Assembly: GCF_008065095.1 (NCBI RefSeq)
Contig: NZ_CP042911.1
Span: forward strand, 7,620,001-7,652,000
Direction of reading: 5' to 3'
DNA length: 32,000 nt
DNA from: Gemmata obscuriglobus
GTDB lineage: Bacteria; Planctomycetota; Planctomycetia; Gemmatales; Gemmataceae
Made by a program: the position numbers and the translations under genes. Shown piece by piece: positions 6,776-31,457 of this stretch. Position 1 is the stretch's first letter. Every line of letters starts with the position of its first letter. The notes beneath the pieces are model-generated. The model worked only from the letters and a program-made list of their open reading frames with translations, was not told where the DNA came from and did not search any database.

Positions 6776-6806
6776 GGAAGTCGGGTGGGCAAAACGCGGG
6801 ACGCGG

Positions 6807-8157: not shown

Positions 8158-9686
8158 GACGCCACCGCCTCTCTGGCGGCCTTGTTCGCCGCCCGCTTCG
8201 CCGCCCGAGACTTCTTCTCCGCGACCCGCACCTCGAGCTCGGTGCGGAGCCGATTGCGGAGCGACAGCGCCAGCTCGGGCAGCACCAGGCCGGGGGTGCC
8301 GTAGATCCCGCACGCCGCCGCGATCTCCTCCCCCTTGCCCTCGGCCCGGTCGCGGACCTCCGGCCACGACAGGTCGAGCTGGTGCATGAGCGCGAGCAGC
8401 TCCGCGACATCGGCCCCCGGAGCGGGCGGCGCGGTGAACCGGCGGCCGAACGCCGGGGCGGGTTTCGGGGCAGGGTCAGTCGTTAGGGTCGTGGGTTTGG
8501 CCACTGCCGTCGTCGAGTTCAGCGGGGCGTTCGGGGTGGCCGCCGTCGTAGTAGGCGTCCTCGTCGCCCCCGTGGTAGGGTCCGAGCGATCCTCACCCTC
8601 CACGTCGTCGGTCGCGGCCGGCAGGGGTGCGGGCGCCGGCACCGGCCCGGGAGGGGGCGGCGGGGGCGGGCTCGCCGGCGGCGGCGGGGGCGGGGCGTCG
8701 GGCTGGTTCCCGAGCCACGCGGCGTACAGCGCGACGTGCTCCGCGGACACGCTGGCGAAGTCCGGCTTCGCCTCGAGGTGGGTGGTGCCGAACGACTTGT
8801 CGATCCAGCTCAGCGCGTTGCGCCACGTCTTGCCCTTGCGGGTCAGCAGCGCCGAGAACTCCTCCTTCGACCACTTCCGGGCGGTCACGCCCCGGGCCTT
8901 GGCCTTGCGGTACTCGGCGTCGAACGCCCGGTACAGCGCCACCGCGTTCGGCGCGCTGGTGACCTCGTCGGGCAGCCCGTACCGGTTCCCGGCCACGATC
9001 GCCGCGGACGGCTGGACCCGCAGGTACCGCTCCTCCTTGTACGCCTTATCGTCCTTGTTCACCTGCACCCGCAGCCCGTAGAACCCGATCACGTCGGCCC
9101 ACTTGTGGGTCAGCCCCCAGAGCCGCTCGTACCCCTCCGGCTTCCACTGCTCGTAGTCCTTGCCGGTCGGGTTGTTGAACTGCTTGGCCTTCGAGTGGTA
9201 CAGCAGCACCACCGCCATCCGGCGCCGCACCCGCACCTGGTCGAGCAGGTTCAGGAAGCCGGCCCAGACCGGGGCGCACCGCCGCTCCCCGCGGCCGAAC
9301 GAGTTGAACTCGCCCCAGTTGCCGAGGAACTCGGTGTCCGTGTCGCACACGTGCTGGGCGAGCAGGTTCTCGGCCCCGTTACCCGTGTCGACCAGCAGCG
9401 TGCGGTAGTCGTGCGGCTCGTTGATGACGGCCCGCACGGCGTCGGTCAGGTCGTCCCACTTCAGGAACCCGGTCGGGTTCTCCTCGGACGACGGGAGGTG
9501 CGCGGTCGGCCCCACCTGGCCCGATTCGATGAGGGTGAGCAGCCCGGTCTCACCGGCGGTCATCAGGAACAGCGGGTTCTCCCACTGCGCGCCGAAGCTG
9601 GTTTTGCCCGCCTTCTCGGGGGCGTACATGACGAACCGGGGCGGCAGGTTCGGCGCGGTCGTGGTGACGGACGAGAGGATACCCAT
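8154..9686 (-). CDS. AAA_24 / Sak4-like RecA-fold ATPase with long Pro-rich C-terminal extension (510 aa)
   Basis: Track ORF 8154..9722. ATG at 9686 is preferred because GAGG lies 7 nt upstream. Walker A-like YAPEKAGKTSF. Poly-Pro linker PPPPPPASPPPPPPPGPVPAPAPLP followed by a further ~170 aa. Confidence 0.75.
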   Translation of the reverse strand: MGILSSVTTTAPNLPPRFVMYAPEKAGKTSFGAQWENPLFLMTAGETGLLTLIESGQVGPTAHLPSSEENPTGFLKWDDLTDAVRAVINEPHDYRTLLVDTGNGAENLLAQHVCDTDTEFLGNWGEFNSFGRGERRCAPVWAGFLNLLDQVRVRRRMAVVLLYHSKAKQFNNPTGKDYEQWKPEGYERLWGLTHKWADVIGFYGLRVQVNKDDKAYKEERYLRVQPSAAIVAGNRYGLPDEVTSAPNAVALYRAFDAEYRKAKARGVTARKWSKEEFSALLTRKGKTWRNALSWIDKSFGTTHLEAKPDFASVSAEHVALYAAWLGNQPDAPPPPPPASPPPPPPPGPVPAPAPLPAATDDVEGEDRSDPTTGATRTPTTTAATPNAPLNSTTAVAKPTTLTTDPAPKPAPAFGRRFTAPPAPGADVAELLALMHQLDLSWPEVRDRAEGKGEEIAAACGIYGTPGLVLPELALSLRNRLRTELEVRVAEKKSRAAKRAANKAAREAVAS

Positions 9687-9726
9687 GACAGGGCCTCGGG
9701 ACGTGGACACGAACGGACACACACAG

Positions 9727-9798
9727 TCGCGGGGGCAGGGATCGAACCTGCGACCTGCGGGTTATGAGCCCGCCGAGCTGCCACTGCTCCACCCCGCG
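9727..9798 (-). tRNA. tRNA-Met (CAT), initiator-like, embedded in the prophage operon
   Basis: Manual cloverleaf: CGCGGGG TG GAGC AGTGGCA GCTC G GCGGG CTCATAA CCCGC AGGTC GCAGG TTCGATC CCTGC CCCCGCG A. It has A11:U24 and three G:C pairs closing the anticodon stem. No CCA; trailer is CTG. Confidence 0.85.
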
Positions 9799-9833
9799 GA
9801 ACCGAGCGGATACGCCCCGCCCGGCCGAACCGG

Positions 9834-10124
9834 TCACGTCCGCGCTTCGATCTGCTTCACCTTGGCGAGCACCAGGTCGAGGCCGGTGGTGTCGCCGGTG
9901 ACCGCGGCCCGGAGCGTCTCGCTCAGCAGGAACGCGCTCACCCGGGCCTGCTTCGCCAGCAGCAGGCACTGCGGGCACCGGCACGCCTCGAGCGCGGCCG
10001 TCCGGGCGTGCATCACGTTCGCGCTGGTGGCGACCAGCGCCAGGAACGCCGGCTCGGCGGTCGAGCGGTTCTGAGGGTGCGGGCTGCTCTCCGGTTGGGG
10101 TGCGTCGGCGTTCGGCATCACCAT
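9834..10124 (-). CDS. hypothetical phage protein (96 aa)
   Basis: Internal ATG of track ORF 9834..10637 (MVMPNADAPQPESS...EACRCPQCLLLAKQ...). The upstream part of that ORF is off-frame-like. Confidence 0.5.
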   Translation of the reverse strand: MVMPNADAPQPESSPHPQNRSTAEPAFLALVATSANVMHARTAALEACRCPQCLLLAKQARVSAFLLSETLRAAVTGDTTGLDLVLAKVKQIEART

Positions 10125-10159
10125 GAGGCTCTCCGTCTGGCGGTTGAAGGGGAACGGGG

Positions 10160-10540
10160 TCAGGCGGACGCGAGCTGCGCGTCGTCCGGGGCCGGGACGA
10201 ACGGGAGGGGTTCGGTCTCGGAGACCAAGTCCCCTTCGGTCGGATCGAACACGTAGCCGCCGCCGCGCAGGAGCGGCACGTACGGGCCGTCGTACCGGGC
10301 CTCGTCGTCCGGCTCCCACACCCGCAGCCGCGACAGGCCCCGCCCCTCGCGGGCCGCCTGCAGCTCCTCGGCCCGGTACCGGCGGCGCTCGTCGGCCGGG
10401 CGGTGGGGCGGCGGGCCGGCGGGCGCGAGGATCTCCGCCCGCTGCTCCGGGGTGCACTGCGAGAGGATCGCGCGCCCCACGTCCACGAGGTCGCCCTCGG
10501 CCAGGGGGTGCGTGTCGGACGAGTCGGTGTACAGTTGCAC
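10160..10540 (-). CDS. hypothetical phage protein (126 aa)
   Basis: Track ORF 10160..10540 (MQLYTDSSDTHPLAEGDLVDVGRAILSQCTPEQRAEIL...). Balanced composition, unlike the overlapping frames. Confidence 0.6.
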   Translation of the reverse strand: MQLYTDSSDTHPLAEGDLVDVGRAILSQCTPEQRAEILAPAGPPPHRPADERRRYRAEELQAAREGRGLSRLRVWEPDDEARYDGPYVPLLRGGGYVFDPTEGDLVSETEPLPFVPAPDDAQLASA

Positions 10541-10753
10541 GAGGCGTGCTCCGGTGAGCGGCCGGTCCGTGCCGCGAAGGTTGAAGAAAGCTCCCGTTCT
10601 GCGCCCCGCAACGCTCCGTGCGGGCGGGGCGCACCAACCACGAGCAGGCAGCGCCGACCCGGCGCTTCGAGGTGCCGCGAATCAGGTGGCGGCATCACCC
10701 TCCCGACGCCCGCCGTCCGTGGCGGGAGCTCCAGCGCCCGGCGGGCGCGTGTC

Positions 10754-10999
10754 TCAGTTCTGGTTCGTTCCCCACAGGTGCTGCTGCACCTGGGCGGCCT
10801 GGGTCTCCAGTTCCTTCAGCCGCGCGTTCTGGTCGCGGAGCTGCCGGTGCGCCCGCTCCAGGTGCGGCACCAGGTCGCTCGCCCGGCGCTCGGCGCGGTG
10901 GTCGGACCACGCGGCCCAGACCCACAGCGCGAGCCGCACGTCGATCAGCGCGCCGCCGGCGATCGCCAGCACCAGCACGGCCACCAGCAGCGTGTTCAC
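10754..10999 (-). CDS. small membrane-anchored coiled-coil protein (81 aa)
   Basis: GTG at 10999 with GGAGG 7 nt upstream. VNTLLVAVLVLAIAGGALIDVRLALWVWAAW is a TM helix, followed by a heptad-like segment LERAHRQLRDQNARLKELETQAAQVQ. Confidence 0.5.
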   Translation of the reverse strand: MNTLLVAVLVLAIAGGALIDVRLALWVWAAWSDHRAERRASDLVPHLERAHRQLRDQNARLKELETQAAQVQQHLWGTNQN

Positions 11000-11223
11000 G
11001 ACCGCGCCTCCTGGACCCGCTCGGCCTCGCGCTGCGCCGTCTGCTCCGTCTCGATCCCGCGCACCGCCACCTGGAGTTCGCCCAGGAGCAGCCGGGCCTC
11101 GTCGAGCGTCAGCCACCCGATCCCCTGCCCGGTCTCCATCCGCGTCAGCCGGACGACCGCGCCCGGGGTGCGACTGGGGCGCCCAGGGGCGCCGCGGTCC
11201 GCTCTCACTCGCCCGAGTGCCAT
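10996..11223 (-). CDS. hypothetical phage protein (75 aa)
   Basis: ATG at 11223 preceded by AAGGAGA 7 nt upstream. MALGRVRADRG...GWLTLDEARLLLGELQVAVRGIETEQ. Its stop overlaps the next GTG (GTGA). Confidence 0.5.
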   Translation of the reverse strand: MALGRVRADRGAPGRPSRTPGAVVRLTRMETGQGIGWLTLDEARLLLGELQVAVRGIETEQTAQREAERVQEARS

Positions 11224-11438
11224 CGCCGCTCTCCTTAGTGGTTCGTGAACGAACCGGGCCGGGGCCGCCGCCTGCGGGTGGAGGGTGCGGCGACCGACGC
11301 CGTGGAGCACCCGCAGTTGGCACCTCGCTCCCAGCTCGGGGCGCGTCCGTTCGCGCACCCCGGCCCGGTGTGTCTGGCCCGCCGGGGGAGTCACGGCCGG
11401 TCGCCCAACGCGGCGGACTCGACCCCGGACGGGTGCTC

Positions 11439-11768
11439 TCAGGGGTTTCGTGGTTTGCGTTTCTTCCGGGCCATGTGTTCGCGGGCGACATCCTCACCCA
11501 GGGCCAGCGCCGCGATCTCGTCCGGCAGGAAGTAGATCCGCTTGTTCGGCCCCCGCTGGCCGCTCGGCCGGATCACCGAACACAGGCCCATCGCCGCGTA
11601 CTTCCGGAGCGTGTTGCGGCAGACGCCCAGGGTCTCGCACGCTTGGCCCGAGGTCAGGCGTTTGGCGGTCGGCGCGGCGGTAGCGCGGGGAGCGGGCGAG
11701 AGCCGCGTGAGTGCGGCCTCGATCCGGTCCAGTCGCTCAATGACGGCATTGAAATCGGGCGAGGACAT
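11439..11768 (-). CDS. excisionase/AlpA-like helix-turn-helix DNA-binding protein
   Basis: Track ORF 11439..11768. LTSGQACETLGVCRNTLRKYAAMGL...RIYFLPDEI fits the HTH_17/excisionase pattern. Confidence 0.65.
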   Translation of the reverse strand: MSSPDFNAVIERLDRIEAALTRLSPAPRATAAPTAKRLTSGQACETLGVCRNTLRKYAAMGLCSVIRPSGQRGPNKRIYFLPDEIAALALGEDVAREHMARKKRKPRNP

Positions 11769-11771
11769 GGG

Positions 11772-12029
11772 TCACGCTCCCCCGCCGCTGTGTGCGATTT
11801 GCTCCGCCTCGTAGGCGGCCTTGATCGGCGCGACTGCGGGAACGCCGCCTCGCTTCCACGCTTCGAGTTCGGCAACTCGCAGGTAGATCGGGGGCCGCTT
11901 CTTGGCCGCGCCGAACTTGCCGCGGGTGAAAACCCCTTCGTGAACGAGGGCACAAAGCTGCTTGTAGTTGATGTCAAACAGCCTCGCCGCCTCGGGCGCC
12001 GGGAGCCAGGAAGCCACATTAGTTGGCAT
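11772..12029 (-). CDS. excisionase-family helix-turn-helix DNA-binding protein
   Basis: Track ORF 11772..12029. WLPAPEAARLFDINYKQLCALVHEGVF...PIYLRVAELEAW. AAGGAGAAGG RBS upstream. First gene of the leftward operon. Confidence 0.65.
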   Translation of the reverse strand: MPTNVASWLPAPEAARLFDINYKQLCALVHEGVFTRGKFGAAKKRPPIYLRVAELEAWKRGGVPAVAPIKAAYEAEQIAHSGGGA

Positions 12030-12060
12030 GCTTGTTACCCCTTCTCCTTTGCCACTAGTA

Positions 12061-12092
12061 GAAAAGTTAACTTTTCACCCCGGTAATGTCAA
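12061..12092 (-). promoter_or_regulatory. candidate leftward early promoter with overlapping 16-bp perfect palindromic operator
   Basis: Minus strand reads TTGACA (12092-12087), a 17-nt spacer, then TAACTT (12069-12064). The perfect palindrome GAAAAGTTAACTTTTC (12061-12076) overlaps the -10. Local GC is about 43%. Confidence 0.4.
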
Positions 12093-12112
12093 GCCATTCT
12101 GGGCGAAGAAAG

Positions 12113-12142
12113 TTGAAGTGTGGATGAGTGACCAATTAGATT
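12113..12142 (+). promoter_or_regulatory. candidate rightward promoter
   Basis: TTGAAG (12113-12118), an 18-nt spacer, then TAGATT (12137-12142), upstream of the GTG at 12161. Confidence 0.25.
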
Positions 12143-12160
12143 TGTTAACGGGGACGTGTC

Positions 12161-12463
12161 GTGCCTGAACTGTTGCTCAGGGAGCCGCCTGTGGCGAAAT
12201 CGCTTCAGCCACCGAAACCGGAAGACGAGAACAGCCCCTTAGCTGACGGTGGCGATGCCGAAGACCCGAAGTACACCGCGCACCTGAAGGTGCCGCTCGA
12301 GTTTATGGAGCGGCTCACCGAAATTGCTCACAAGATCAATAAGCGCCGTCGTCGGCAGGGGAGGAAGAAGCGAGCGCTCGGCTGGTTTGTGGTCACTCAC
12401 CTTGAGGGCTGGATGAACCGGGCTGAGGCGGAGCTTCAGATGGAAGAGGAGGAGGGCTCTTGA
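12161..12463 (+). CDS. putative ribbon-helix-helix (Arc/CopG-like) regulator (100 aa)
   Basis: Track ORF 12161..12463 (GTG start). AHLKVPLEFMERLTEIAHKINK resembles an RHH strand-helix. Divergent from the leftward operon. Confidence 0.45.
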   Translation: MPELLLREPPVAKSLQPPKPEDENSPLADGGDAEDPKYTAHLKVPLEFMERLTEIAHKINKRRRRQGRKKRALGWFVVTHLEGWMNRAEAELQMEEEEGS

Positions 12464-12629
12464 TCTTGATCGCCGTGCGGTAGTCGCACGACTCTTCCTC
12501 GCCCAACTCGCCGCTCCACGCCTCAAAGAGGATGAACCGGCAATCCGGTGAGACCTGCCTCGCGTACCGGGTTACGAATGCCCGGAACTGTTCTTCTGTG
12601 ATGTCCCCGTTGTTGTCCGAAACAGCCAC
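12393..12629 (-). CDS. hypothetical protein (78 aa), convergent with and overlapping the RHH gene
   Basis: GTG at 12629 with AAGGAG 8 nt upstream. VAVSDNNGDITEEQFRAFVTRYARQVSPDCRFILFEAWSGELGEEESCDY. The last ~24 codons lie antisense to 12161..12463 and look non-coding. Confidence 0.35.
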   Translation of the reverse strand: MAVSDNNGDITEEQFRAFVTRYARQVSPDCRFILFEAWSGELGEEESCDYRTAIKIKSPPPLPSEAPPQPGSSSPQGE

Positions 12630-12759
12630 GGTCCCACTCCTTTGGCCGACTCGACACCCGTTCACACGCGAACTGAACTCTAACCAACGATTCGCGCTCT
12701 GCCAACCGCCGTATGTGTTCCAAATGCTTTCGGAACACCCCGCTCAAAGGACACGCCCG

Positions 12760-13680
12760 ATGTTCGGACCGAACGCCAAGCCGCTTGACCTGTGCACCTG
12801 GTTCGTTCCCCACCTTGCGCGATCAATGGCTCTGTCAGGTTGCGACGAGATCGACGAGACCTACACGTGCGGCCCGTTCTCCATCACTTTCAAGGGGCGT
12901 AACGACGACATTGGGGCCGACCCGAGCTTGCCGCGAAAAGTCCGGCGAACATCGGATAAAGTGCAGGACGTGTACCGCGCGTTCGTGGCGATCTGGAACG
13001 ACCCGAACCGCCGGCCGGACCCGATCATGCCGAAGCCCATTCGGACCTGGCTGCTCGCCGAGTACGCTCGCGCAGAGCCGGACAAGACGCAGCGGAAAGA
13101 CGCCCCCCGGAGCAGTATTCAGCACGCGCTAAGCGATCTTCAGGAGCTTGGCATCATTCACCAGCACGGGGACGGCGGTTGGGTCATGGGTCCCCGGCCC
13201 GAGCCGAAACAGGGCACCATTACCGACGACGAGGGTGTTCCGAACGAAAACGGAACACATAGCCCACTTGAACAGGCGGCCACCATCACCCATGCTTCCC
13301 ACGTCGGCGGTGCGGATGTCGTGCCGCCGCGAACGGGAGCGCAGGACATGTTCGGTAAGCTGATCTGGGTGCCGGGCGAGAAGGACGACTTCGAGACGGG
13401 CGGGCTGGTGATCACCGACGACACCGGCACGAGTCACCTGGCCGAAGGGAAGCAAGAGCGGGTGCGGTACTCGGGCCGCACCGGACGGCCCGCGGCGCCC
13501 CTCGCGGTGCGGTGCGAACTGGTCACCGTCGACGACTCGGGGCGGCACAAGGTGGCGGTCGTCAAAATCAAGGGGCCGGAGGGCACCAAACAGATCCGCG
13601 TCCGCGTGCTGGGCGACTGGCAACTCGCGGGCCGCATGAGCGACCGCGAAGAGCCGGCCACACTCGCCGCGAGCAACTGA
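12760..13680 (+). CDS. hypothetical protein with winged-helix-like segment (306 aa), upstream of and overlapping the integrase start
   Basis: Internal ATG of track ORF 12532..13680 (MFGPNAKPLDLCTWF...); an alternative ATG is at 12724. IQHALSDLQELGIIHQHGDGGWVMG looks wHTH-like. Lower GC than its surroundings. Its TGA overlaps the integrase ATG. Confidence 0.6.
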   Translation: MFGPNAKPLDLCTWFVPHLARSMALSGCDEIDETYTCGPFSITFKGRNDDIGADPSLPRKVRRTSDKVQDVYRAFVAIWNDPNRRPDPIMPKPIRTWLLAEYARAEPDKTQRKDAPRSSIQHALSDLQELGIIHQHGDGGWVMGPRPEPKQGTITDDEGVPNENGTHSPLEQAATITHASHVGGADVVPPRTGAQDMFGKLIWVPGEKDDFETGGLVITDDTGTSHLAEGKQERVRYSGRTGRPAAPLAVRCELVTVDDSGRHKVAVVKIKGPEGTKQIRVRVLGDWQLAGRMSDREEPATLAASN

Positions 13681-14951
13681 TGGGGCGCGTTCACAGGAAG
13701 CAGTACACGAAGCCCATCCCCGCCGGGGCCGAGCGGGTCACGGTCAAGGGCGTGCCGTGCGTGCGCTGGCGCGGCAAGTCGAAGCAGTGGCAGGTGGGCG
13801 TCGTGCTGCCGGGCGGCCGGTGCCGCCTCGAATCGGCCAACTGGTACGTCACCTACTTCGACCACACCAAGGGCAAAGAGGTGACCGTTCCGGGATACGC
13901 CGACAAGGCGGCTTCAGAAGCGCTCCTCGCCCAGCTCGTCCGCACCAGCGCCCGCGTCGACGCGGGCCTGTTGCCCCCGGAAGCCGTCCGGCCCCGACTC
14001 TCGCTCACCGAACTCCTGGACCGCTGGCACCGCCACGTGAAGCACGGGGGCGCGTCGGACGAGGGCGCCCGCCGGCAGCGGCGGCACGCCCAGGCCGTGT
14101 GCGACGGGGTGAGCGCGGCCAAGCCGGCCGACCTGACGCCGTCGGCGGTCCTGGAGTGGATCGAGGCGCAGCGGGAGAGCGGCGGCCGATCGGGCGACGG
14201 CATCTCGGTCGGCACCGCCGCGAACTACATCGGCGCGGCCAAGTCCTTCACGCGCTGGTGCTGCGTCGTCGAGAAGTGCGAGCCGGTGGACCACCTGTCC
14301 GGACTCGAAAAGAGCGGCCCCGGGCCGGACGACCGTGTCCACGTCCGCCGATCGCTCTTGCCCGACGACCTGGACAAGCTCCTCGCGGCCGCCCGGGCGA
14401 GCACGGCGGAGGTGTACGGGCTCACCGGACCGGAGCGGCACGCGCTCTACCTCACGGCCTGCTCGACGGGGCTCCGCGCCTCGGAGCTGGCCCGCCTCAA
14501 GCCCGAGCACTTCGATTTGGTCGGCGCCACGGTTACCGTTCATCGGCCCGCGAAGACGAAGAAGCGAGCCACCGACGTGCTGCCGCTCGGCCCGGACGTC
14601 GTCGAGGCGCTCCGCCCGATCCTGGCCGCGGTGGGAAAGGGGACCGTCTGGCCGAACCGCGGCGCGGAGTCCCAGGCGTGGTGGCTGCTCGGCGCGCGGC
14701 TCATCCGCGCCGACCTGGTGGCCGCGGGCATTCCGCCGACCGCCCCGGACGGCCGGGTGTACGACTTCCACTCGCTCCGGGGCCAGTTCGCGACGGATCT
14801 GGACCGCGCTGGCGTCAGTCTGCCCCGCGCGCAAAAGCTGATGCGGCACTCGACGCCGGACCTCACCGCGAAGCACTACCACCGCCCGGAATCGGACGAG
14901 CTGGCCGCGGACGTGGCGAAGCTGCGCCGGGGCAAGCCGGCGGGCTCGTAG
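13680..14951 (+). CDS. int: tyrosine-type site-specific integrase
   Basis: Internal ATG of track ORF 13512..14951 (MGRVHRKQYTKPIP...). C-terminal catalytic signature ...HSLRGQFATDL...LMRHSTPDLTAKHY (HxxR...Y). Adjacent to a tRNA 3' end. Confidence 0.9.
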   Translation: MGRVHRKQYTKPIPAGAERVTVKGVPCVRWRGKSKQWQVGVVLPGGRCRLESANWYVTYFDHTKGKEVTVPGYADKAASEALLAQLVRTSARVDAGLLPPEAVRPRLSLTELLDRWHRHVKHGGASDEGARRQRRHAQAVCDGVSAAKPADLTPSAVLEWIEAQRESGGRSGDGISVGTAANYIGAAKSFTRWCCVVEKCEPVDHLSGLEKSGPGPDDRVHVRRSLLPDDLDKLLAAARASTAEVYGLTGPERHALYLTACSTGLRASELARLKPEHFDLVGATVTVHRPAKTKKRATDVLPLGPDVVEALRPILAAVGKGTVWPNRGAESQAWWLLGARLIRADLVAAGIPPTAPDGRVYDFHSLRGQFATDLDRAGVSLPRAQKLMRHSTPDLTAKHYHRPESDELAADVAKLRRGKPAGS

Positions 14952-15080
14952 CTTGCCGGCAAGCTTGCCGTCCGTTCGTGATTCCCGGTGCGTCTCAGTG
15001 AACAATCGGACATGCAAGCTGAAGGTGCGGAACTATGGTAATCCGCTTGATTTCGGTGCGAATCGCTTGGTTTTCAAGAG

Positions 15081-15152
15081 TGGGTCCGGTGGGAGTCGAA
15101 CCCACTTCCAAGGTGTTATGAGCACCCTGCTCGACCGTTGAGCTTCAGACCC
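15081..15152 (-). tRNA. tRNA-Met (CAT; elongator Met or lysidine-modified Ile2 cannot be distinguished by eye)
   Basis: Manual cloverleaf: GGGTCTG AA GCTC AACGGTC GAGC A GGGTG CTCATAA CACCT TGGAA GTGGG TTCGACT CCCAC CGGACCC A. No CCA; trailer is CTC. The 3' end faces the integrase. Confidence 0.85.
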
Positions 15153-25347: not shown

Positions 25348-26769
25348 TCACACCTCGATCTTCTTCCACTTTCCGCTTGCGAACCGCAGTGCGAAAAAGG
25401 TCCCCCGCAGCCACAGGTCGGCGCACATCGCGACCCACGCGCCCAGCAGGCCCATGTCCGCACCTCGGACCGTCCCGAGCGGGCCGAGATCCACCTGCGG
25501 GGCGGTCATCAGGTACGCCAGCGGAATCCGCACGCCCAAGAACCCGAGCCAACTGAACAGCACCGGCACGCGCGCGTCGCCGGCCCCGCGCAGCGCGGCG
25601 GTAAAAATGATCTGACTCGCCAGAGCCGGCATCGCGCACGCGATCAGCCGCAGCGCCGGTGCGCCGGTGTCGACGATGGGTTGCAGGTCGGCGCCCGGAC
25701 AGAACACCTTGAACATCGGTTCCGCCAGGAGCACGAACAGCACGCCCATGCAGCACATGAGCCCCCCGCCGATCGCGAACGCCACCCACACGCTCCGGGC
25801 GGCGCGGTCCGGGGTGCGGGCGCCCAGGTTCTGCCCCACCAGTGTCATCGCAGCGGTGCCGAACGCCGCCCCGGAGAGGAACCCGAGGGCTTCCCAGCGC
25901 AGCGCGATCCCGTGCGCGGACGCTGCGGTGTCGCCGAGCCGGTTCACGATGCTGAGGAACCACAACTGGCAGAACGCGGCCGACAGGCTGTCGATCGCGG
26001 CCGGAACGCTGACCCACAGCAAACGCCGGATCAGGCCGGTATCGGGAACCAAGTTGGCGAGGTGCAGCTTCAGCCCCGACCGGCCGCGCGAGAGAATGAC
26101 GAGTAGTGTGATGCACCCGATTACGTGACTGAGCCCCGTGCCCAGTGCGATCCCGATGAACCCGAAGCCCCGGAACGGCCCGAACCCGAAGCACAGCCCC
26201 CACGCCAACGGCACGTTCAGCACGGCCACGAGCCCGAGCACCTTCAGCCCGGTGCGCGTGTCCCCGGCGCCCGCGAGGCACGCGGCGCACGCGGACTCGG
26301 TGATTTGGAACGCGAGAAGGGCCGCCAGGGGCGTCAGGAACTCGACGCACACCCGCGCCGCGTCGCCCTCGAGCTTCAGGGCGCGGATCAGGTCCGGCAG
26401 CCCCACCAGTGCCGCGACCGCGCCCACAACGCCGAACACAACGGCCAAAACGATGGACTGGCCGGCGGCCCGGTTGGCGAGTGCGAAGTCCCGCGCCCCA
26501 ACGAAACGGGCCACAAGGGCGGTGCTCCCGACGCTGACCAGAACCGTGTAGCTCGACACGAACCAGTACAGGTATCCGGCCGTGTTCAACGCAGACAGGT
26601 ACCCGACCCGGGCCGCCGGATCGGATACCTGAAATCGTCCCGCGAGAAACTGGTCGGAGAGCTGCACGACGAGGTGCAGGTATTGCTGTGCAAGCGCGGG
26701 CAGAGCGAGGACGAGCACCTGCCGCCCGAGCGGGCGAGATAGCGCGTCCTGCGGAGCCGATGTGTCCAT
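25348..26769 (-). CDS. MATE-family multidrug/toxic-compound efflux transporter
   Basis: Track ORF 25348..26775 (GTG); ATG at 26769 is preferred. About 12 hydrophobic segments. N-terminal LALPALAQQYLHLVVQLSDQFLAG is typical of MatE. Confidence 0.85.
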   Translation of the reverse strand: MDTSAPQDALSRPLGRQVLVLALPALAQQYLHLVVQLSDQFLAGRFQVSDPAARVGYLSALNTAGYLYWFVSSYTVLVSVGSTALVARFVGARDFALANRAAGQSIVLAVVFGVVGAVAALVGLPDLIRALKLEGDAARVCVEFLTPLAALLAFQITESACAACLAGAGDTRTGLKVLGLVAVLNVPLAWGLCFGFGPFRGFGFIGIALGTGLSHVIGCITLLVILSRGRSGLKLHLANLVPDTGLIRRLLWVSVPAAIDSLSAAFCQLWFLSIVNRLGDTAASAHGIALRWEALGFLSGAAFGTAAMTLVGQNLGARTPDRAARSVWVAFAIGGGLMCCMGVLFVLLAEPMFKVFCPGADLQPIVDTGAPALRLIACAMPALASQIIFTAALRGAGDARVPVLFSWLGFLGVRIPLAYLMTAPQVDLGPLGTVRGADMGLLGAWVAMCADLWLRGTFFALRFASGKWKKIEV

Positions 26770-26816
26770 GCCCACATCTTAGTGACCGCGGCGCCGACCG
26801 CCGGTCGCCCCAACCC

Positions 26817-27498: not shown

Positions 27499-27522
27499 TC
27501 ACTGCTTCATTCGTGCTCACAG

Positions 27523-27595
27523 GCGGCGCGGGGGGAGTCGAACCCCTCACCTGGGCCGTCACAGGGCCACGTGCTACCGCTACACCACATGCCGC
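27523..27595 (-). tRNA. tRNA-His (GTG)
   Basis: G-1 + CGGCATG TG GTGT AGCGGTA GCAC G TGGCC CTGTGAC GGCCC AGGTG AGGGG TTCGACT CCCCC CGCGCCG C. G-1:C73 is the His hallmark. One A5-C68 mismatch. No CCA. Confidence 0.75.
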
Positions 27596-27680
27596 ATCGC
27601 AAGAACTGAAGAATCCTCCGACCGACCGCTCCGGTTCAAAGCCGCGCGCGCGGCGTTCCGATTCGCGATTGTCAGTTGAG

Positions 27681-27754
27681 TGATCCCGGGTGGAATCGAA
27701 CCACCGACCTCCTCCGTGTCAGGGAGGCGCCTTGAACCACTGGGCCACGGGATC
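27681..27754 (-). tRNA. tRNA-Val (GAC)
   Basis: GATCCCG TG GCCC AGTGGTTCA AGGC G CCTCC CTGACAC GGAGG AGGTC GGTGG TTCGATT CCACC CGGGATC A. No CCA. Confidence 0.85.
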
Positions 27755-27847
27755 GACCGTTCGAGCGCGGAACGTAGCGTGCAGGGTTCGGAGCGTTCGC
27801 ATCTTACGTTCCGAACCCCGCGCGATACGTTCCGCGCGACCTTCAGG

Positions 27848-27936
27848 CGGAGGGGGTGGGATTCGAACCCACATACCCGTTTAAGGGCAACCGCTTTAGC
27901 AGAGCGGCCCGGCCAAGCCGTATCCGGCTCCCGTCC
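27848..27936 (-). tRNA. tRNA-Ser (GCT), class II
   Basis: GGACGGG AG CCGG ATACGGCTTGG CCGG G CCGCT CTGCTAA AGCGG, long variable arm TTGCCCTTAAACGGGTAT, then GTGGG TTCGAAT CCCAC CCCCTCC G. C4-C69 mismatch in the acceptor stem. Confidence 0.7.
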
Positions 27937-27984
27937 GTCGGCCCGCTCAAGTGAGCGGGCGGTGATCGGCGCGCGTGCGGCGAG

Positions 27985-28040
27985 TGCGGGGTGCGGAACT
28001 AACCCCAGTCGGCCGGACCTTTGGTAAGCCCGCACCCCGC
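27985..28040 (-). pseudogene. tRNA-like remnant (56 nt) lacking a D arm, CCA anticodon-like loop
   Basis: GCGGGGT ... ACCCCGC A forms a perfect 7-bp acceptor-like helix. Inside it are GGGCT TACCAAA GGTCC and a degenerate T region (GGGGTTAGTTC). Confidence 0.4.
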
Positions 28041-28065
28041 GCCCGCCGCACGCGCACCGATCGAG

Positions 28066-28137
28066 TGGACCCGCCGGGAGTCGAACCCGGGCTGCCGGCA
28101 TGCCATACCGGCGTCATCCCGCCTAGACCACGAGCCC
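28066..28137 (-). tRNA. tRNA-Ala (GGC)
   Basis: GGGCTCG TG GTCT AGGCGGGA TGAC G CCGGT ATGGCAT GCCGG CAGC CCGGG TTCGACT CCCGG CGGGTCC A. The G3:U70 Ala identity pair is present. Confidence 0.8.
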
Positions 28138-28177
28138 ACAGCAACAGGAGTCCGGCCCGGTGCGCCCCGAACTCCAG

Positions 28178-28245
28178 TGGAACCGCGGGGAGTCGAACCC
28201 CGTGGCCGTGCTTGCAAGGCACAGCCCTCGCCCGCGAGCGATCCC
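28178..28245 (-). tRNA. tRNA-Ala (TGC) with shortened D-arm region (68 nt)
   Basis: GGGATCG [CTCGCGGGCGAGGGC] TGTGC CTTGCAA GCACG GCCA CGGGG TTCGACT CCCCG CGGTTCC A. G3:U70 is present. Only 15 nt lie between the acceptor and anticodon stems. Confidence 0.55.
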
Positions 28246-28326
28246 GTTTGACGAGCTTCGAGTTCGGGTTCCGAGTTGAGAGCGGCGCCGATTCGCGCCC
28301 CAACTTGAAACCTGGAACCCGCTGAG

Positions 28327-28408
28327 TGACCTCGGTGGGAGTCGAACCCACACGCCTCGCGGCAGCCGGCTCTCAACCGACTCTGGCTACCAGTTACAGC
28401 ACGAGGTC
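28327..28408 (-). tRNA. tRNA-Leu (GAG), class II
   Basis: GACCTCG TG CTG TAACTGGTAGC CAG A GTCGG TTGAGAG CCGGC TGCCGCGAGGCGT GTGGG TTCGACT CCCAC CGAGGTC A. Confidence 0.85.
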
Positions 28409-28467
28409 ATTCGTCGCGAGCGGTGTCGTGAACGAACCGTCCGTTCACGACGCACCGCCACCAACAG

Positions 28468-28549
28468 TGGCCCAGGAGGGAGTCGAACCCTCACGCCTTA
28501 CGGCACCGGCTTCTGAGACCGGGGTGACTACCAGTTCCACCACCGGGCC
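28468..28549 (-). tRNA. tRNA-Leu (CAG), class II
   Basis: GGCCCGG TG GTG GAACTGGTAGT CAC C CCGGT CTCAGAA GCCGG TGCCGTAAGGCGT GAGGG TTCGACT CCCTC CTGGGCC A. Confidence 0.85.
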
Positions 28550-28575
28550 AACGTTCGCGCCGCTGCGGCGCGGAG

Positions 28576-28644
28576 TCGCGGAGCCTGGGACTCTAACCCA
28601 GCAACCGGGCATATGAAACCCAGCCGAGCGCCTGCCCGCCCGCG
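28576..28644 (-). tRNA. degenerate tRNA-Met-like (CAT): short D region, non-canonical T loop, acceptor bulge; possibly a pseudogene
   Basis: CGCGGGC [GGGCAGGCGCTCGGC] TGGGT TTCATAT GCCCG GTTG CTGGG TTAGAGT CCCAG GC(T)CCGCG A. The T loop lacks the TTCRA consensus. Confidence 0.4.
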
Positions 28645-28662
28645 AAACATCAGCTCGTCCAG

Positions 28663-28730
28663 TTGCGGGCCTCAGAGTCGAACTGAGCAGCCAGGCTTAT
28701 GAGACCCGGCCGAGCTCCGGCCCGCCCGCA
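28663..28730 (-). tRNA. tRNA-Met-like (CAT) with shortened D-arm region (68 nt)
   Basis: TGCGGGC [GGGCCGGAGCTCGGC] CGGGT CTCATAA GCCTG GCTG CTCAG TTCGACT CTGAG GCCCGCA A. Paralogous to 28576-28644. Confidence 0.5.
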
Positions 28731-28745
28731 ATCGTTTCGGTCCAG

Positions 28746-28820
28746 TGGTGACGGTGGGATTCGAACCCACACTGTCCACGTTCTGAGCGTGGCGACTCCT
28801 GCCAGTTGGTCTACATCACC
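28746..28820 (-). tRNA. class I (short variable arm) tRNA with Leu anticodon CAG
   Basis: GGTGATG TA GAC CAACTGGCAGGA GTC G CCACG CTCAGAA CGTGG ACAGT GTGGG TTCGAAT CCCAC CGTCACC A. The cloverleaf is well formed, but the variable region is only 5 nt. Confidence 0.7.
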
Positions 28821-28873
28821 TCATCAAACCTGCGGCGGCTCGACCGCCGCGCCGGCCGCTCTCGCGCCGGCAG

Positions 28874-28946
28874 TGACCCGTGGGGGAATCGAACCCCCGT
28901 TTACAGGTTGAGAACCTGTCGTCCTGAACCGCTAGACGAACGGGCC
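28874..28946 (-). tRNA. tRNA-Glu (CTC)
   Basis: GGCCCGT TC GTCT AGCGGTTCA GGAC G ACAGG TTCTCAA CCTGT AAAC GGGGG TTCGATT CCCCC ACGGGTC A. Confidence 0.85.
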
Positions 28947-28983
28947 GTATATCACACGCTCACATCACAACCGTCTCATCAGG

Positions 28984-29056
28984 CGACTCGTACGGGAGTT
29001 GAACCCGTGTCTCCAGGTTGACAACCTGACATCTTGAACCGTTAGACGAACGAGCC
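28984..29056 (-). tRNA. tRNA-Asp (GTC)
   Basis: GGCTCGT TC GTCT AACGGTTCA AGAT G TCAGG TTGTCAA CCTGG AGAC ACGGG TTCAACT CCCGT ACGAGTC G. G73 discriminator. Confidence 0.8.
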
Positions 29057-29090
29057 GTTAGTTCCCGGTCTGTACCCAACTCCTAACAAG

Positions 29091-29175
29091 TGCCCCGGGT
29101 GGGAATCGAACCCACATTGTCCGTGAGGACGGCTGCTTTACAGGCAGCCTGGCGGCCCACCGCGCGTCCGGAGGC
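29091..29175 (-). tRNA. tRNA-Tyr (GTA), class II, irregular acceptor/D region
   Basis: GCC(T)CCGG ... GCTGC CTGTAAA GCAGC CGTCCTCACGGACAAT GTGGG TTCGATT CCCAC CCGGGGC A. The acceptor pairs perfectly only if one T on the 5' strand is bulged. I could not fold the D arm canonically. Confidence 0.6.
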
Positions 29176-29195
29176 GTAACCGTCGGTCGTCGGAG

Positions 29196-29269
29196 TAGCA
29201 CGGGAGGGATTCGAACCCACACGCACCAAGGTTTGAGCTTGGCCGCACTCCCGGTTGGCGTACCGTGCC
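29196..29269 (-). tRNA. class I (short variable arm) tRNA with Leu anticodon CAA
   Basis: GGCACGG TA CGC CAACCGGGAGT GCG G CCAAG CTCAAAC CTTGG TGCGT GTGGG TTCGAAT CCCTC CCGTGCT A. 5-nt variable region. One U-U mismatch in the T stem. Confidence 0.65.
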
Positions 29270-29364
29270 ACACGATCATTGCGACATTCGGAACACGGAG
29301 TTCGGAATCAAGAACTCGAACACAACACCGATCAACTCACTCCGCTGATACACCCGCTCAGCCA

Positions 29365-29435
29365 AGCCCTCGGCGGGAATCGAACCCGCGCGTCCGTCAT
29401 ACCAAAACGGCAAGCTGCCACTACATCACAAGGGC
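29365..29435 (-). tRNA. tRNA-Thr (GGT)
   Basis: GCCCTTG TG ATGT AGTGGCA GCTT G CCGTT TTGGTAT GACGG ACGC GCGGG TTCGATT CCCGC CGAGGGC T. Mismatch at 11:24 in the D stem. Confidence 0.75.
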
Positions 29436-29491
29436 CGTACATATCACGTCTTCAACTTCATGTTCCGAACCCCTCGTTCCGAATTCGGGAG

Positions 29492-29562
29492 AGCGCCCAG
29501 CGGGAGTCGAACCCGCACATCCGCCATGGCAAGGCGATAGGCTACCGCTACATCATGGGCGC
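29492..29562 (-). tRNA. tRNA-Gly (GCC)
   Basis: GCGCCCA TG ATGT AGCGGTA GCCT A TCGCC TTGCCAT GGCGG ATGT GCGGG TTCGACT CCCGC TGGGCGC T. U73 discriminator. Confidence 0.8.
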
Positions 29563-29585
29563 GTATCAATCACATCACAAACCAG

Positions 29586-29659
29586 TGGAAGCGGTGGGAA
29601 TCGAACCCACGTACACCTGCTTAAGAGGCAGGCCCCTAGCCAACGTCGGACACACTTCC
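29586..29659 (-). tRNA. tRNA-Lys (CTT)
   Basis: GGAAGTG TG TCCG ACGTTGGCT AGGG G CCTGC CTCTTAA GCAGG TGTAC GTGGG TTCGATT CCCAC CGCTTCC A. Confidence 0.85.
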
Positions 29660-29678
29660 GGCTCGCCCTCGCGGGCAG

Positions 29679-29751
29679 CGGTCCACACGGGAGTCGAACC
29701 CGCACCCTTCCGCTCGACAGGCGGCTGCTCTACCAACGGAGCTTCTGGACC
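29679..29751 (-). tRNA. tRNA-Asp (GTC), second and structurally different copy
   Basis: GGTCCAG AA GCTC CGTTGGTA GAGC A GCCGC CTGTCGA GCGGA AGGGT GCGGG TTCGACT CCCGT GTGGACC G. Mismatches at 7:66 and 27:43. Confidence 0.7.
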
Positions 29752-29771
29752 GTACACGTCACTTCGACCAG

Positions 29772-29853
29772 CAGGTGGCGGAGGAATCGAACCCCACAGG
29801 ACGGAGCCGTCGGTTTTGGAGACCGAGTGCGTTCCCAGACGCGTTCACCACCT
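29772..29853 (-). tRNA. Trp-like tRNA (CCA) with 13-14-nt variable region and irregular D arm (82 nt)
   Basis: AGGTGGT(G) AACGCGTCTGGGAACGCAC TCGGT CTCCAAA ACCGA CGGCTCCGTCCTG(T) (T)GGGG TTCGATT CCTC(C) (C)GCCACCT G. A1:U72, G73 and the anticodon arm resemble tRNA-Trp. An alternative fold has an 8-bp acceptor and a 4-bp T stem. Confidence 0.6.
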
Positions 29854-29864
29854 GTAATTCCCAG

Positions 29865-29937
29865 TACCCCGTGCGGGAGTCGAACCCGACCTAAGCGGCT
29901 TGAAAGACCGCCGACCTCACCGGAAGTCGAACGGGGC
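29865..29937 (-). tRNA. tRNA-Glu (TTC)
   Basis: GCCCCGT TC GACT TCCGGTGA GGTC G GCGGT CTTTCAA GCCGC TTAGG TCGGG TTCGACT CCCGC ACGGGGT A. Mismatch at 49:65. Confidence 0.8.
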
Positions 29938-30368
29938 GTTCCCGTGTCGTCCGCCCCCCGGCCACAAAACGAAACCGGCCGGGGGTCGCTTGTACCCCCG
30001 GCCGGCGCGGTCGCCACTCACATGGCTCGCCAGGGGTTCATCCGCTCGTATCGCTCAGACCGCTCAGAGCCGCTTCGACTTCGACTTCAAGACGCGCGGC
30101 CGTATCAAGACCCAGACCTAACGCATAACCCGCTTCCCAACCGGCCGCGAGATACGTCGCCTTCGCGGCGACGGCATCACTCGTCGCTTGAAGTTCGGTG
30201 CTCGCGTGCCAGAGGGTCATGGTTGTATCGTGTGTAAGCTGTGATCCGTTGTTGTTGACCGCGGGGATTGTTGCCCCTCACTCGCGGTGTACGCTAGATA
30301 GACGCGGAACCTATAAGCGGGTTCGCACGAAACCGATTTTATTTTGTCCCCGTGTTGGGAACCGAACG

Positions 30369-31457
30369 GTGAGCGAGTTGGAACGCTGGATGCGGCACGC
30401 CCTGGCGCTGGCCGCCCGGGGCCGCGGGGCCGTCGAGCCGAACCCGATGGTCGGGGCGGTGGTGCTCGACCCGACCGGGAAGCCGGTCGGCGAGGGCTGG
30501 CACCAGAAGTTCGGCGGCCCGCACGCGGAGGTGTTCGCCCTTCAGGCCGCTGGGGCACGTGCCCGCGGCGGAACACTCCTCGTCACCCTTGAGCCGTGCT
30601 GCCACCACGGGAAAACGCCGCCCTGTACCGATGCGGTGCTGCGGGCCGGTGTGGCGCGCGTGGTCGCGGCGATGGCCGACCCCTTCCCGCGCGTCGCCGG
30701 GGGCGGGTTGGCGCTCCTCCGCGCCGCCGGGGTGGACGTTCAAGTCGGGTTGTGCGAAGCGGACGCGCGGGCGCTCAACGCGCCGTACCTGAAGTTGCTG
30801 AGCACCGGGCGCCCGTGGGTCCACGCAAAATGGGCCATGACGCTCGACGGCAAGCTCGCGGCCCGGACCGGCGACTCCAAATGGATCAGCGGTGCCGAGT
30901 CGCGCCGGCGCGTCCACGAGTTGCGCGGGCGGCTCGACGCGATCCTCGTGGGGCGCGGAACGGTCGTCGCGGACGACCCGCTCCTAACGGCCCGGCCCGC
31001 GGGCGTGCGCGTGCCCGCGCGGGTGGTGCTGACCGCGTCCGGAGAGCTACCGGCGGCGTGTCAGTTACGCGCCACCGCGCGCGAGGCGCCCGTCCTCGTG
31101 TACACCGCCAACCCCGGAAAGCTCGGCGGGTGGGCCGCCGACGGCGCGGAGGTCGTCGGCTTCGGTGAGCTGACCCTCGACGCCGTTCTCGCGGATCTGG
31201 GCCGGCGGCGCTTCACAAACGTGCTGCTGGAGGGCGGCGCGGGGCTATTGGGGGCGGCTCGTGATGCGGACGCGATCGACGAGTTTCACGTGTTTATCGC
31301 GCCAAAGGTGGTCGGCGGAAGTGCGGCGCTGACGCCCGTCGGCGGTACGGGCGCCGCGCGGATGGCGGAGGCGCTGACGCTCGAAGGGGTGACGTTCGAG
31401 CCGTCCGGCGCGGACGTGTACGTCCACGGGTTCGCGCCGGGTCGGGTCGTTGTGTAA
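30369..31457 (+). CDS. ribD: bifunctional riboflavin biosynthesis protein RibD (pyrimidine deaminase / uracil reductase)
   Basis: Track ORF 30198..31457. GTG at 30369 is preferred (VSELERWMRHALALAARG...); an alternative ATG is at 30390. NPMVGAVV, HAEVFAL and TLEPCCHHGKTPPC form the CMP/dCMP deaminase zinc site. The C-terminal part is an RibD_C reductase region. Confidence 0.9.
   Translation: MSELERWMRHALALAARGRGAVEPNPMVGAVVLDPTGKPVGEGWHQKFGGPHAEVFALQAAGARARGGTLLVTLEPCCHHGKTPPCTDAVLRAGVARVVAAMADPFPRVAGGGLALLRAAGVDVQVGLCEADARALNAPYLKLLSTGRPWVHAKWAMTLDGKLAARTGDSKWISGAESRRRVHELRGRLDAILVGRGTVVADDPLLTARPAGVRVPARVVLTASGELPAACQLRATAREAPVLVYTANPGKLGGWAADGAEVVGFGELTLDAVLADLGRRRFTNVLLEGGAGLLGAARDADAIDEFHVFIAPKVVGGSAALTPVGGTGAARMAEALTLEGVTFEPSGADVYVHGFAPGRVVV

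Follow-up and report, generated by a model that had tools for sequence, protein, structure and literature searches.

A class I tRNA-Leu(CAG) gene in a Gemmata obscuriglobus tRNA array and its family of short-variable-loop leucine tRNAs

Structure and leucine identity elements of the class I gene

The window analyzed here, a stretch of 32,000 nucleotides (nt) of the Gemmata obscuriglobus genome, contains a tRNA array in which one tRNA-Leu(CAG) gene is of class I, with a variable loop of 5 nt instead of the long arm of canonical tRNA-Leu (Table 1). The sequence evidence indicates that this gene probably encodes a leucine-accepting, CUG-decoding tRNA of a family spread over phages and tRNA arrays, under purifying selection in the Gemmataceae. 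A first-pass annotation made from the DNA letters had described it as a well-formed class I tRNA with a CAG anticodon, and two programs bear this out. ARAGORN folds it into a cloverleaf, called as tRNA-Leu(cag) at 28745-28820 on the minus strand, and the Rfam model RF00005 matches it end to end (model positions 1-71) with 55.5 bits (gathering score, 29), the fourth-best Rfam score among the array tRNAs. On the minus strand, the 75-nt gene reads GGUGAUG UA GAC CAACUGGCAGGA GUC G CCACG CUCAGAA CGUGG and then ACAGU GUGGG UUCGAAU CCCAC CGUCACC A. The D arm combines a 3-bp stem (GAC/GUC) with a 12-nt loop (CAACUGGCAGGA), the anticodon and T stems are 5 bp each and perfect, and the discriminator is A73; the ARAGORN fold agrees with the earlier description on these points and on the ACAGT variable region. 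The acceptor stem, also described as perfect, is indeed paired over its 7 bp but includes a single U6.G67 pair. No CCA is encoded, and the variable loop falls short of the stem-loop of more than 10 nt that defines class II. The gene thus displays the sequence features by which we recognize the family, i.e., a Leu anticodon, a variable region of 4-6 nt with the consensus ACAGU, a 3-bp D stem whose loop of 11-12 nt is of the type C13 A14 A15 Y U G18 G19 Y A G R A22, A73, and a high score with the family model described below.

The earlier description also placed the gene beside canonical Leu(CAG) and Leu(GAG) genes with similar D loops, which are present as described (GAACUGGUAGU and UAACUGGUAGC, respectively). 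In the class II Leu(CAG) gene, which has the anticodon of the class I gene, the variable arm consists of 4 bp and a 4-nt loop. From this resemblance and its short variable region the class I gene had been interpreted as a Leu tRNA that lost its arm, and a local loss is contradicted by the identities: the target shares 69-73% identity with its class II neighbors, compared to 87 and 91% with class I Leu(CAG) genes outside the Gemmataceae, found on viral contig L010 and in an Alcaligenaceae metagenome-assembled genome (MAG), L157. A local deletion derivative of the neighboring class II gene was therefore rejected (69% identity), and the loss of the arm, if it was ever lost, would be ancient and family-wide. 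Like canonical class II tRNA-Leu, the target combines a Leu anticodon with A73, a 3-bp D stem with a large loop, A14, A15, and G18G19; it differs by its 5-nt variable loop in place of an arm of more than 10 nt, by a D loop of 12 rather than 10 to 11 nt, and by A37 where G is usual.

A covariance model of the family (R1) was built from a seed of 60 viral sequences with less than 80% mutual identity, from which the window and its closest relatives, including the target and its orthologues, were excluded. In this seed, 98.4% of the cells were paired, compared to 63% in shuffles and 36-45% when the partners were slid, and changes on both sides were found in 17 of the 20 cloverleaf pairs (covariation score of 0.95 versus 0.23). 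Across 162 unique 75-nt family cores, 98.6% of these 20 pairs were standard, and A73, U48, G47, and A35 were present in 162/162, none of them being fixed by the selection motif. The R1 model scored the target at 91.1 bits (E value of 1.7e-27), while the best non-Leu tRNA of the window, a tRNA-Val, reached 47.6 bits.

The R1 model and D-arm statistics were used in place of isotype-specific tRNA models. D-arm geometry was tabulated over 1,937 tRNAs, and other isotypes were compared if represented by at least 20 tRNAs. With regard to geometry, 93% of class I and 88% of class II Leu tRNAs had a 3-bp D stem and a loop of 10 nt or more, and no other isotype exceeded 47%; for the sequence N13-A14-A15, the corresponding figures were 94%, 90%, and a maximum of 14%. 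The Leu type of the target's D arm, already proposed in the first-pass annotation, is confirmed by these figures; because the class I frequencies match those of class II, they also point to a Leu-specific core common to both classes. In E. coli, the determinants of leucyl-tRNA synthetase (LeuRS) are A73, A14, A15-U48, G18G19, and D/T-loop contacts, while the anticodon and the long arm are dispensable (PMC9976931). The target retains every determinant on this list.

Relatives in phages, viral contigs, and bacterial genomes

A BLAST search of the array against phage genomes led to the gene annotated as tRNA-Leu in Microcystis phage Mwe-JY26, a class I tRNA of 78 nt with anticodon UAG and with the same D arm and ACAGU variable loop as the target, to which it is 77% identical over 75 nt and 86% over the 64-nt core. 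Viral contigs were then scanned with the D-arm motif alone (TAGNCCAAYTGGYAGSAGNC), leaving the anticodon unconstrained, which gave at least 120 loci. Among the matches listed, 138/138 motif-bearing viral tRNAs had Leu anticodons (UAG, 41; UAA, 40; CAA, 27; CAG, 15; GAG, 12; AAG, 3), and all were 75-80 nt long. Since a single D arm spans the CUN and UUR boxes, which are linked by leucine alone, this distribution is strong evidence that the tRNA body carries leucine identity.

The 62-nt family core also matched 124 cultured-phage records, from hosts including Streptomyces, Pseudomonas, Erwinia, Mycobacterium, Cellulophaga, Enterococcus, Gordonia, Rhodococcus, and cyanobacteria, and wherever a feature was annotated beneath the match, it was a tRNA-Leu. 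Mycobacterium phage Rey carries class I Leu(UAG) and Leu(CAA) genes of 75 and 76 nt, respectively, Streptomyces phage Comrade carries a 75-nt class I Leu(CAA), and a short tRNA-Leu is also encoded by Synechococcus phage S-CRM01. In a 5-kb stretch of Erwinia phage Hena2 with 24 tRNA genes, the Leu genes (CAA, AAG, and UAA) are all of class I and none is of class II. The short tRNA-Leu genes of these four phages and of Mwe-JY26 resemble the target in their 3-bp D stem, CAAYUGGYAGRA-type D loop, (N)CAGU variable region, A73, and location in a tRNA cluster. Unlike the target, they reside in phage genomes, mostly have other Leu anticodons, and in many cases encode CCA.

Bacterial tyrosyl-tRNA synthetase (TyrRS) contacts the long arm of its tRNA. 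For SerRS, the size of the long arm is likewise a major identity element (PMC9976931). If the arm is dispensable only for LeuRS, Ser and Tyr tRNAs are expected to keep theirs, a prediction that could have failed. In the same loci, 202/202 Ser tRNAs and 77/78 Tyr tRNAs were of class II, compared to 419 class I versus 109 class II Leu tRNAs, so that arm loss was specific to Leu. The variable-region lengths of the class I Leu tRNAs peaked at 5 nt. We also drew a class-agnostic viral sample using a pattern of D loop plus anticodon loop that is matched by both classes. The pattern-bearing tRNAs of this sample comprised 20 of class I and 28 of class II, and all Leu tRNAs of the same loci comprised 48 and 57, respectively (about 40-46% class I). 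Leu tRNAs with a short arm are accordingly frequent in viral sequence. One of the viral arrays, at 2481-5635 of contig L010 (IMGVR_UViG_3300037264_002724), consists almost wholly of long-armed isotypes, with seven Leu genes (four of class I), five Ser genes, two Tyr genes, and one gene called tRNA-??? by ARAGORN; its class I Leu(CAG) and Leu(UAG) have the D and anticodon arms of the target, save for one or two D-loop bases.

In bacteria, a scan for class I Leu(CAG) genes with one genome per species retrieved 54 loci, the window's own locus not being among them. These loci span the Micromonosporaceae, Nocardia, Actinomadura, Nonomuraea, Gemmataceae, Phycisphaerales, Tepidisphaerales, Myxococcales, Alphaproteobacteria, Gemmatimonadota, Acidobacteriaceae, and Verrucomicrobiales. 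Of the 54, 33 have 8 or more tRNA genes within 8 kb, and the Leu genes in those were mostly of class I. The Alcaligenaceae MAG mentioned above is assigned to another phylum, and its class I Leu(CAG) gene (L157, 2145-2220) has a 64-nt core identical to that of the target, the acceptor stem alone being different, which suggests either that the array was transferred horizontally in recent times or that the MAG was wrongly binned. In actinomycetes (loci L139, L143, L154, L160, L164, L173, L177, and L178, as well as other Micromonosporaceae and Nocardia), class I Leu(GAG) and Leu(CAG) genes lie in clusters of 2-9 tRNAs outside large arrays. Their acceptor stems are near-identical across genera and the genes look like ordinary chromosomal ones; type I Leu tRNAs may thus serve as housekeeping tRNAs for CUN codons in Micromonosporaceae and Nocardia, beyond the CAA case known from Streptomyces.

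The first-pass annotation had presumed that bacterial tRNA-Leu is invariably of class II. This does not hold, as exemplified by the type I tRNA of Streptomyces coelicolor, a Mycobacterium cluster tRNALeu(TAG), and the hundreds of phage and array genes described above. Behra et al. 2019 (PMC6582537) devote one sentence to the Mycobacterium case, a tRNALeu(TAG) of M. mucogenicum and M. phocaicum whose variable loop is short and which is encoded in a cluster. Likened to the target by description only, it too belongs to an accessory tRNA cluster, with a normal class II isoacceptor in the same genome, and it differs in anticodon and phylum. In the literature searched, the terms type I or class I tRNALeu led to Fan et al. 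only, and class I Leu tRNAs are unmentioned in the tRNA-array and viral-tRNA surveys examined, including PMC4758250 and PMC5966550.

The annotation had also recommended a search for orthologues in related genomes, and eight related Gemmataceae loci provided matches with 76-100% identity. The best match to the target reached 100% in L138 (a Frigoriglobus MAG), 99% in L166 (a Gemmataceae MAG) and L149, 97% in L135, 96% in L142 (a Gemmata MAG), 88% in L145, 86% in L174, and 76% in L147, in which the nearest counterpart is a Leu(GAG) gene. No other gene of the array is as well conserved over these eight loci as the class I Leu(CAG). Next to the arrays, the transporter (MatE) side of the window aligns to L138, L166, and L142 with 73-78% nucleotide identity and the ribD side aligns to L149 and L174, the flanks being 72-78% identical to the related loci overall. 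Gene order and flanks are common to L135, L138, L142, L149, L166, and L174, and the array therefore appears to have been inherited at one chromosomal site in the Gemmataceae. The L142 copy of the target carries compensatory changes (C-G to U-A and G.U to A-U). A gene identity of 96-100% in five loci within flanks of 72-78%, together with these compensatory changes, argues for purifying selection. The gene also lacks the marks of a pseudogene, since its stems are intact, its scores are high, and it drifts slowly; a pseudogene was rejected on this conservation across Gemmataceae loci. Among the other array genes, Leu(GAG) is of class I in L138, L142, L147, L149, and L166, whereas the window's class II Leu(CAG) is poorly conserved (65-86%), its best match having a different anticodon in each locus.

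Charging, decoding, and competing explanations

A Leu tRNA of this shape has been characterized biochemically in S. coelicolor, where type I tRNALeu(CAA), one of five tRNALeu isoacceptors, has the variable loop A44 C45 A46 G47 C48 (Fan et al. 2019, PMC6614811). The single LeuRS of S. coelicolor leucylates it with a kcat/Km of 6.25 s-1 uM-1, compared to 14.2 s-1 uM-1 for a type II isoacceptor. Good activity requires at least five nucleotides in the variable loop, U8:A14 matters, and the leucine-specific domain of LeuRS decides type I charging (PMC6614811). Compared by variable loop and described features only, this tRNA and the target are both bacterial and cytoplasmic, share a 5-nt ACAGN loop and A73, and coexist with class II Leu tRNAs. 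They differ in that the S. coelicolor tRNA has CAA and C48 and belongs to an actinomycete with no array described, while the target has CAG and U48 and belongs to a planctomycete array. A short variable loop is also seen in animal mitochondrial type I tRNALeu, whose identity elements are A73 and A14; however, that tRNA has a loose, reduced structure, depends on another synthetase, and is not charged by the S. coelicolor LeuRS, and there is no sign of common descent.

We infer the transcription, processing, leucylation, and ribosomal use of the target as follows. The gene would probably be transcribed together with the rest of the minus-strand array, and its transcript would undergo RNase P cleavage, trimming of the 3' end, and addition of CCA, the last step being proposed because no CCA is encoded. 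The host LeuRS, reading neither the anticodon nor the long arm, would recognize A73, U8:A14, A15:U48, the position of G18G19, and a D arm made of a 3-bp stem and a large loop, and would charge the tRNA with leucine. The charged tRNA would then insert leucine at CUG, which is the leucine codon used most often in this high-GC genome. On a wider scale, the family probably represents an old, horizontally spread group of short-variable-loop Leu tRNAs from phage clusters and bacterial arrays, of which the Gemmataceae appear to have kept one array at one chromosomal site.

Several observations weigh against this interpretation. The class II Leu(CAG) gene, about 200 nt away, makes the class I gene redundant within the array, and some array members look degenerate. 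Acceptance of type I tRNALeu is not general, as neither the E. coli nor the Streptomyces purpurogeneiscleroticus LeuRS charges the S. coelicolor type I tRNA (PMC6614811). The E. coli enzyme nonetheless tolerates arm deletions in its own tRNA (PMC9976931), and charging thus depends on the host enzyme. Family counts other than those of the class-agnostic samples come from loci found via the family's own motif. Finally, canonical bacterial CUN-reading Leu tRNAs carry G37, the m1G37 site. All three Leu(NAG) genes of the array, including the two class II genes, instead have A37 after G36, as do 117/208 class I and 16/32 class II Leu(NAG) genes across all loci, and maintenance of the reading frame by the class I Leu(CAG) may consequently differ.

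The first-pass annotation left open whether LeuRS charges the tRNA or whether another amino acid is attached, which would amount to CUG recoding. By analogy, the LeuRS branch is the better supported, while recoding finds no support in the Leu-only anticodons of the family or in the RibD alignment. Charging by a synthetase other than LeuRS, with the result that another amino acid is inserted at some CUG codons, might be suspected from the class I shape, unusual for a bacterial tRNA-Leu, and from the adjoining canonical Leu(CAG) gene, and deliberately mistranslating bacterial tRNAs do exist, e.g., tRNAProX in Streptomyces. However, only Leu anticodons, and all six of them, occur among the listed family members. 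The body of the target is not that of another amino acid, as it combines a Leu-type D arm with A73, U8:A14, A15:U48, and G18G19; the G3:U70 pair of tRNA-Ala is absent, the anticodon is unfit for anticodon-reading synthetases, and no other identity stands out. Among the Leu codons of ten Pfam-supported ORFs of the window, CUG has a share of 50%, and its share of the codons overall is 5.1%. Where RibD aligns to the E. coli protein, its 12 CUG codons stand opposite LLILMYLLWVLP (L, L, I, L, M, Y, L, L, W, V, L, and P), mostly Leu, Ile, Val, or Met. With CUG this common and no other identity in the tRNA body, reassignment or ambiguity is unlikely, and since the S. coelicolor type I tRNA accepts leucine (PMC6614811), we consider a recoding tRNA very improbable. 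Even less credible is a point mutant in the anticodon of another class I isotype (Val CAC, Met CAU, or Gln CUG). Although a single-base change could yield CAG from several anticodons, with R1 the target exceeds every non-Leu tRNA of the window by at least 43 bits, the nearest class I Leu(CAG) genes outside the Gemmataceae are 87-91% identical to it, its D-arm geometry is Leu-specific, and the orthologues in the eight Gemmataceae loci were counted as all CAG (the L147 match being the Leu(GAG) gene noted above); this origin was rejected on these grounds.

The gene could also be a decaying relic of an old phage-derived array, unexpressed or unused and merely intact in appearance. This would be in line with the Ala(UGC) and Met(CAU) calls that lack an Rfam match, the Trp gene with a 13-nt unpaired variable region, the redundant class II Leu(CAG) nearby, and the consensus scan that gave no promoter for the array. 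Yet the four stems of the target are intact, it scores 91 bits with the family model, no array gene is better conserved, and it remains identical or near-identical across loci of different Gemmataceae genera whose flanks are 72-78% identical, with compensatory changes, all of which make a relic improbable. Another explanation would have the class I tRNA kept mainly as a counter-measure, which escapes toxins or defense nucleases recognizing class II architecture and allows translation to continue. The family occurs chiefly in the tRNA clusters of phages and in arrays of bacteria, about 46% of the Leu tRNAs in class-agnostic viral loci are of class I, and Leu, Ser, and Tyr genes account for nearly the whole L010 array. 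Furthermore, tRNA arrays have been discussed as putative anti-defense systems (PMC12803027), phage tRNAs can evade tRNA-targeting defenses (PMC10264068), and human SLFN11 cleaves type II tRNAs, bacterial Schlafens being antiphage tRNases (PMC13056530). However, no toxin that targets the tRNA-Leu arm is known in these hosts, the bacterial Schlafen studied cleaves Lys, Met, and other tRNAs without class II specificity (PMC13056530), and MenT3 prefers Ser over Leu. The Ser and Tyr tRNAs of the same loci retain their arms, the S. coelicolor type I Leu(CAA) is an ordinary chromosomal tRNA, and no defense or toxin gene was seen beside the array, and we regard a role as counter-measure, the case for which is circumstantial, as rather unlikely. 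We hold to the same slight degree the broader conjecture that short-arm Leu tRNAs are an invention of mobile elements, in which class II architecture, often with G37, was replaced to escape toxins or nucleases while the tRNA stayed chargeable by LeuRS, and that such genes were then domesticated by the Gemmataceae and perhaps by Micromonosporaceae and Nocardia. If this were true, a class I tRNA would be a main or the main decoder of the commonest leucine codon in those lineages.

If the target is, as we favor, a leucine-accepting tRNA, then taken singly it is one more type I tRNA-Leu, of a kind already shown to accept leucine in Streptomyces, and it gives no sign of a changed genetic code. Its interest lies chiefly in the family-wide pattern and less in the single gene. 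In a pattern that the papers examined do not describe, short-arm Leu tRNAs cover all six leucine anticodons, amount to about 40-45% of class-agnostic viral Leu tRNAs, and are present in bacterial arrays of several phyla, and the Ser and Tyr tRNAs of the same loci always or almost always keep their arms. This raises the question of which LeuRS features permit armless substrates, for which Fan et al. point to the leucine-specific domain, and of why mobile elements favor the short-arm Leu architecture. For annotation purposes, such genes should be taken as tRNA-Leu rather than as isotype conflicts or recoding candidates.

The tRNA array and its surroundings

Table 1. Coordinates of the class I tRNA-Leu(CAG) gene, its parts, and other features of the window
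Feature	Position	Strand	Support or remark
Class I tRNA-Leu(CAG)	28746-28820	-	ARAGORN; Rfam RF00005; family model R1
Acceptor stem, 5' strand	28820-28814	-	Class I Leu(CAG)
D arm	28811-28794	-	Class I Leu(CAG)
Anticodon arm	28792-28776	-	Class I Leu(CAG); anticodon CAG at 28785-28783
Variable loop ACAGU	28775-28771	-	Class I Leu(CAG)
T arm	28770-28754	-	Class I Leu(CAG)
Acceptor stem, 3' strand	28753-28747	-	Class I Leu(CAG)
Discriminator A73	28746	-	Class I Leu(CAG)
tRNA array	27522-29937	-	19 ARAGORN calls; 2,416 bp; 7.9 genes per kb; no encoded CCA
Second class I gene, tRNA-Leu(CAA)	29195-29269	-	ARAGORN; Rfam 43.6 bits; R1 59.6 bits
Class II tRNA-Leu(CAG)	28467-28549	-	ARAGORN; Rfam 49.5 bits; R1 41.9 bits
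Class II tRNA-Leu(GAG)	28326-28408	-	ARAGORN; Rfam 41.1 bits
MatE-family transporter gene	25348-26775	-	Pfam MatE, E 6e-38; array flank, synteny anchor
ribD (deaminase + reductase)	30198-31457	+	Pfam RibD_C, dCMP_cyt_deam_1; PDB RibD homologues, E 1e-71; other array flank, synteny anchor
Tyrosine-type integrase	13512-14951	+	Adjoins elongator-type tRNA-Met 15080-15152
PrimPol/DUF3987 primase-helicase	4298-6775	-
AAA_24 protein	8154-9722	-
ParB_N protein	765-2972	-
Initiator-type tRNA-Met	9726-9798

ARAGORN predicted 21 tRNA genes in the whole window, 19 of which form a single array that had gone unnoticed in the first-pass annotation, as had its second class I Leu gene, Leu(CAA). From position 29937 downward, the order is Glu, Trp, Asp, Lys, Gly, Thr, Leu(CAA) of class I, Tyr, Asp, Glu, Leu(CAG) of class I, Met, Leu(CAG) of class II, Leu(GAG) of class II, Ala, Ala, Ser, Val, and His. 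The Rfam gathering score was passed by 14/19 of these calls. The class I Leu(CAA) has a 3-bp D stem, the D loop CAACCGGGAGU, the variable loop UGCGU, A73, and one U.U mismatch in its T stem, and it is 83-92% identical to Leu(CAA) genes of four Gemmataceae loci. The density exceeds the 2 genes per kb set for tRNA array units, and the count of 19 is one below the required 20 (Tran et al. 2016). Like such units (PMC4758250; Morgado and Vicente 2018, PMC5966550), the array is dense, lies on one strand, includes many isotypes with redundant or aberrant members, and is related to phage and mobile-element arrays. Unlike them, it has 19 calls, occupies a conserved chromosomal site across the Gemmataceae, and is not obviously a mobile element. 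A BLAST search against PLSDB plasmids returned generic single-tRNA matches only and no related array.

Two 69-nt ARAGORN calls on the minus strand, Ala(UGC) at 28177-28245 and Met(CAU) at 28662-28730, have stunted D arms and gave no Rfam match at E values up to 1. Each has counterparts with 76-90% identity in five Gemmataceae loci, and they could be either D-arm-reduced tRNAs or slowly decaying genes. The 83-nt tRNA-Trp(CCA) at 29771-29853 (minus strand) combines G73 with a 13-nt unpaired variable region in an isotype that is normally of class I. It was missed by the Rfam tRNA model and scored 39.4 bits with the tRNA-Sec model, below the gathering score of 47, yet it is 94% conserved in the Gemmata MAG locus L142. 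Between Ser(GCU) and Ala(GGC), an inverted repeat (27964-27996 and 28030-28062) has 33-nt arms that are 91% complementary and separated by a 33-nt gap; Rfam gives weak microRNA-precursor matches only for this region (27964-28062), reflecting the long hairpin. GC-rich hairpins are also present in other array spacers. A consensus promoter scan found no promoter for the array and one weak promoter-like site downstream of it. Directly upstream of the first gene of the array lies a strong terminator-like hairpin (30006-29974, minus strand) of 13 pairs, 11 of them G-C, with a T-rich tail.

Farther from the array, the region at 765-15152 has the gene content of an integrated element, including the integrase, primase-helicase, AAA_24, and ParB_N genes listed in Table 1. 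The tRNA-Met genes at 9726 and 15080 were considered as attachment-site duplicates and rejected, as one is initiator-like and the other elongator-like, i.e., they are distinct genes. The GC content of the window is 70-75%, and it falls to 0.58 at 12-13 kb.

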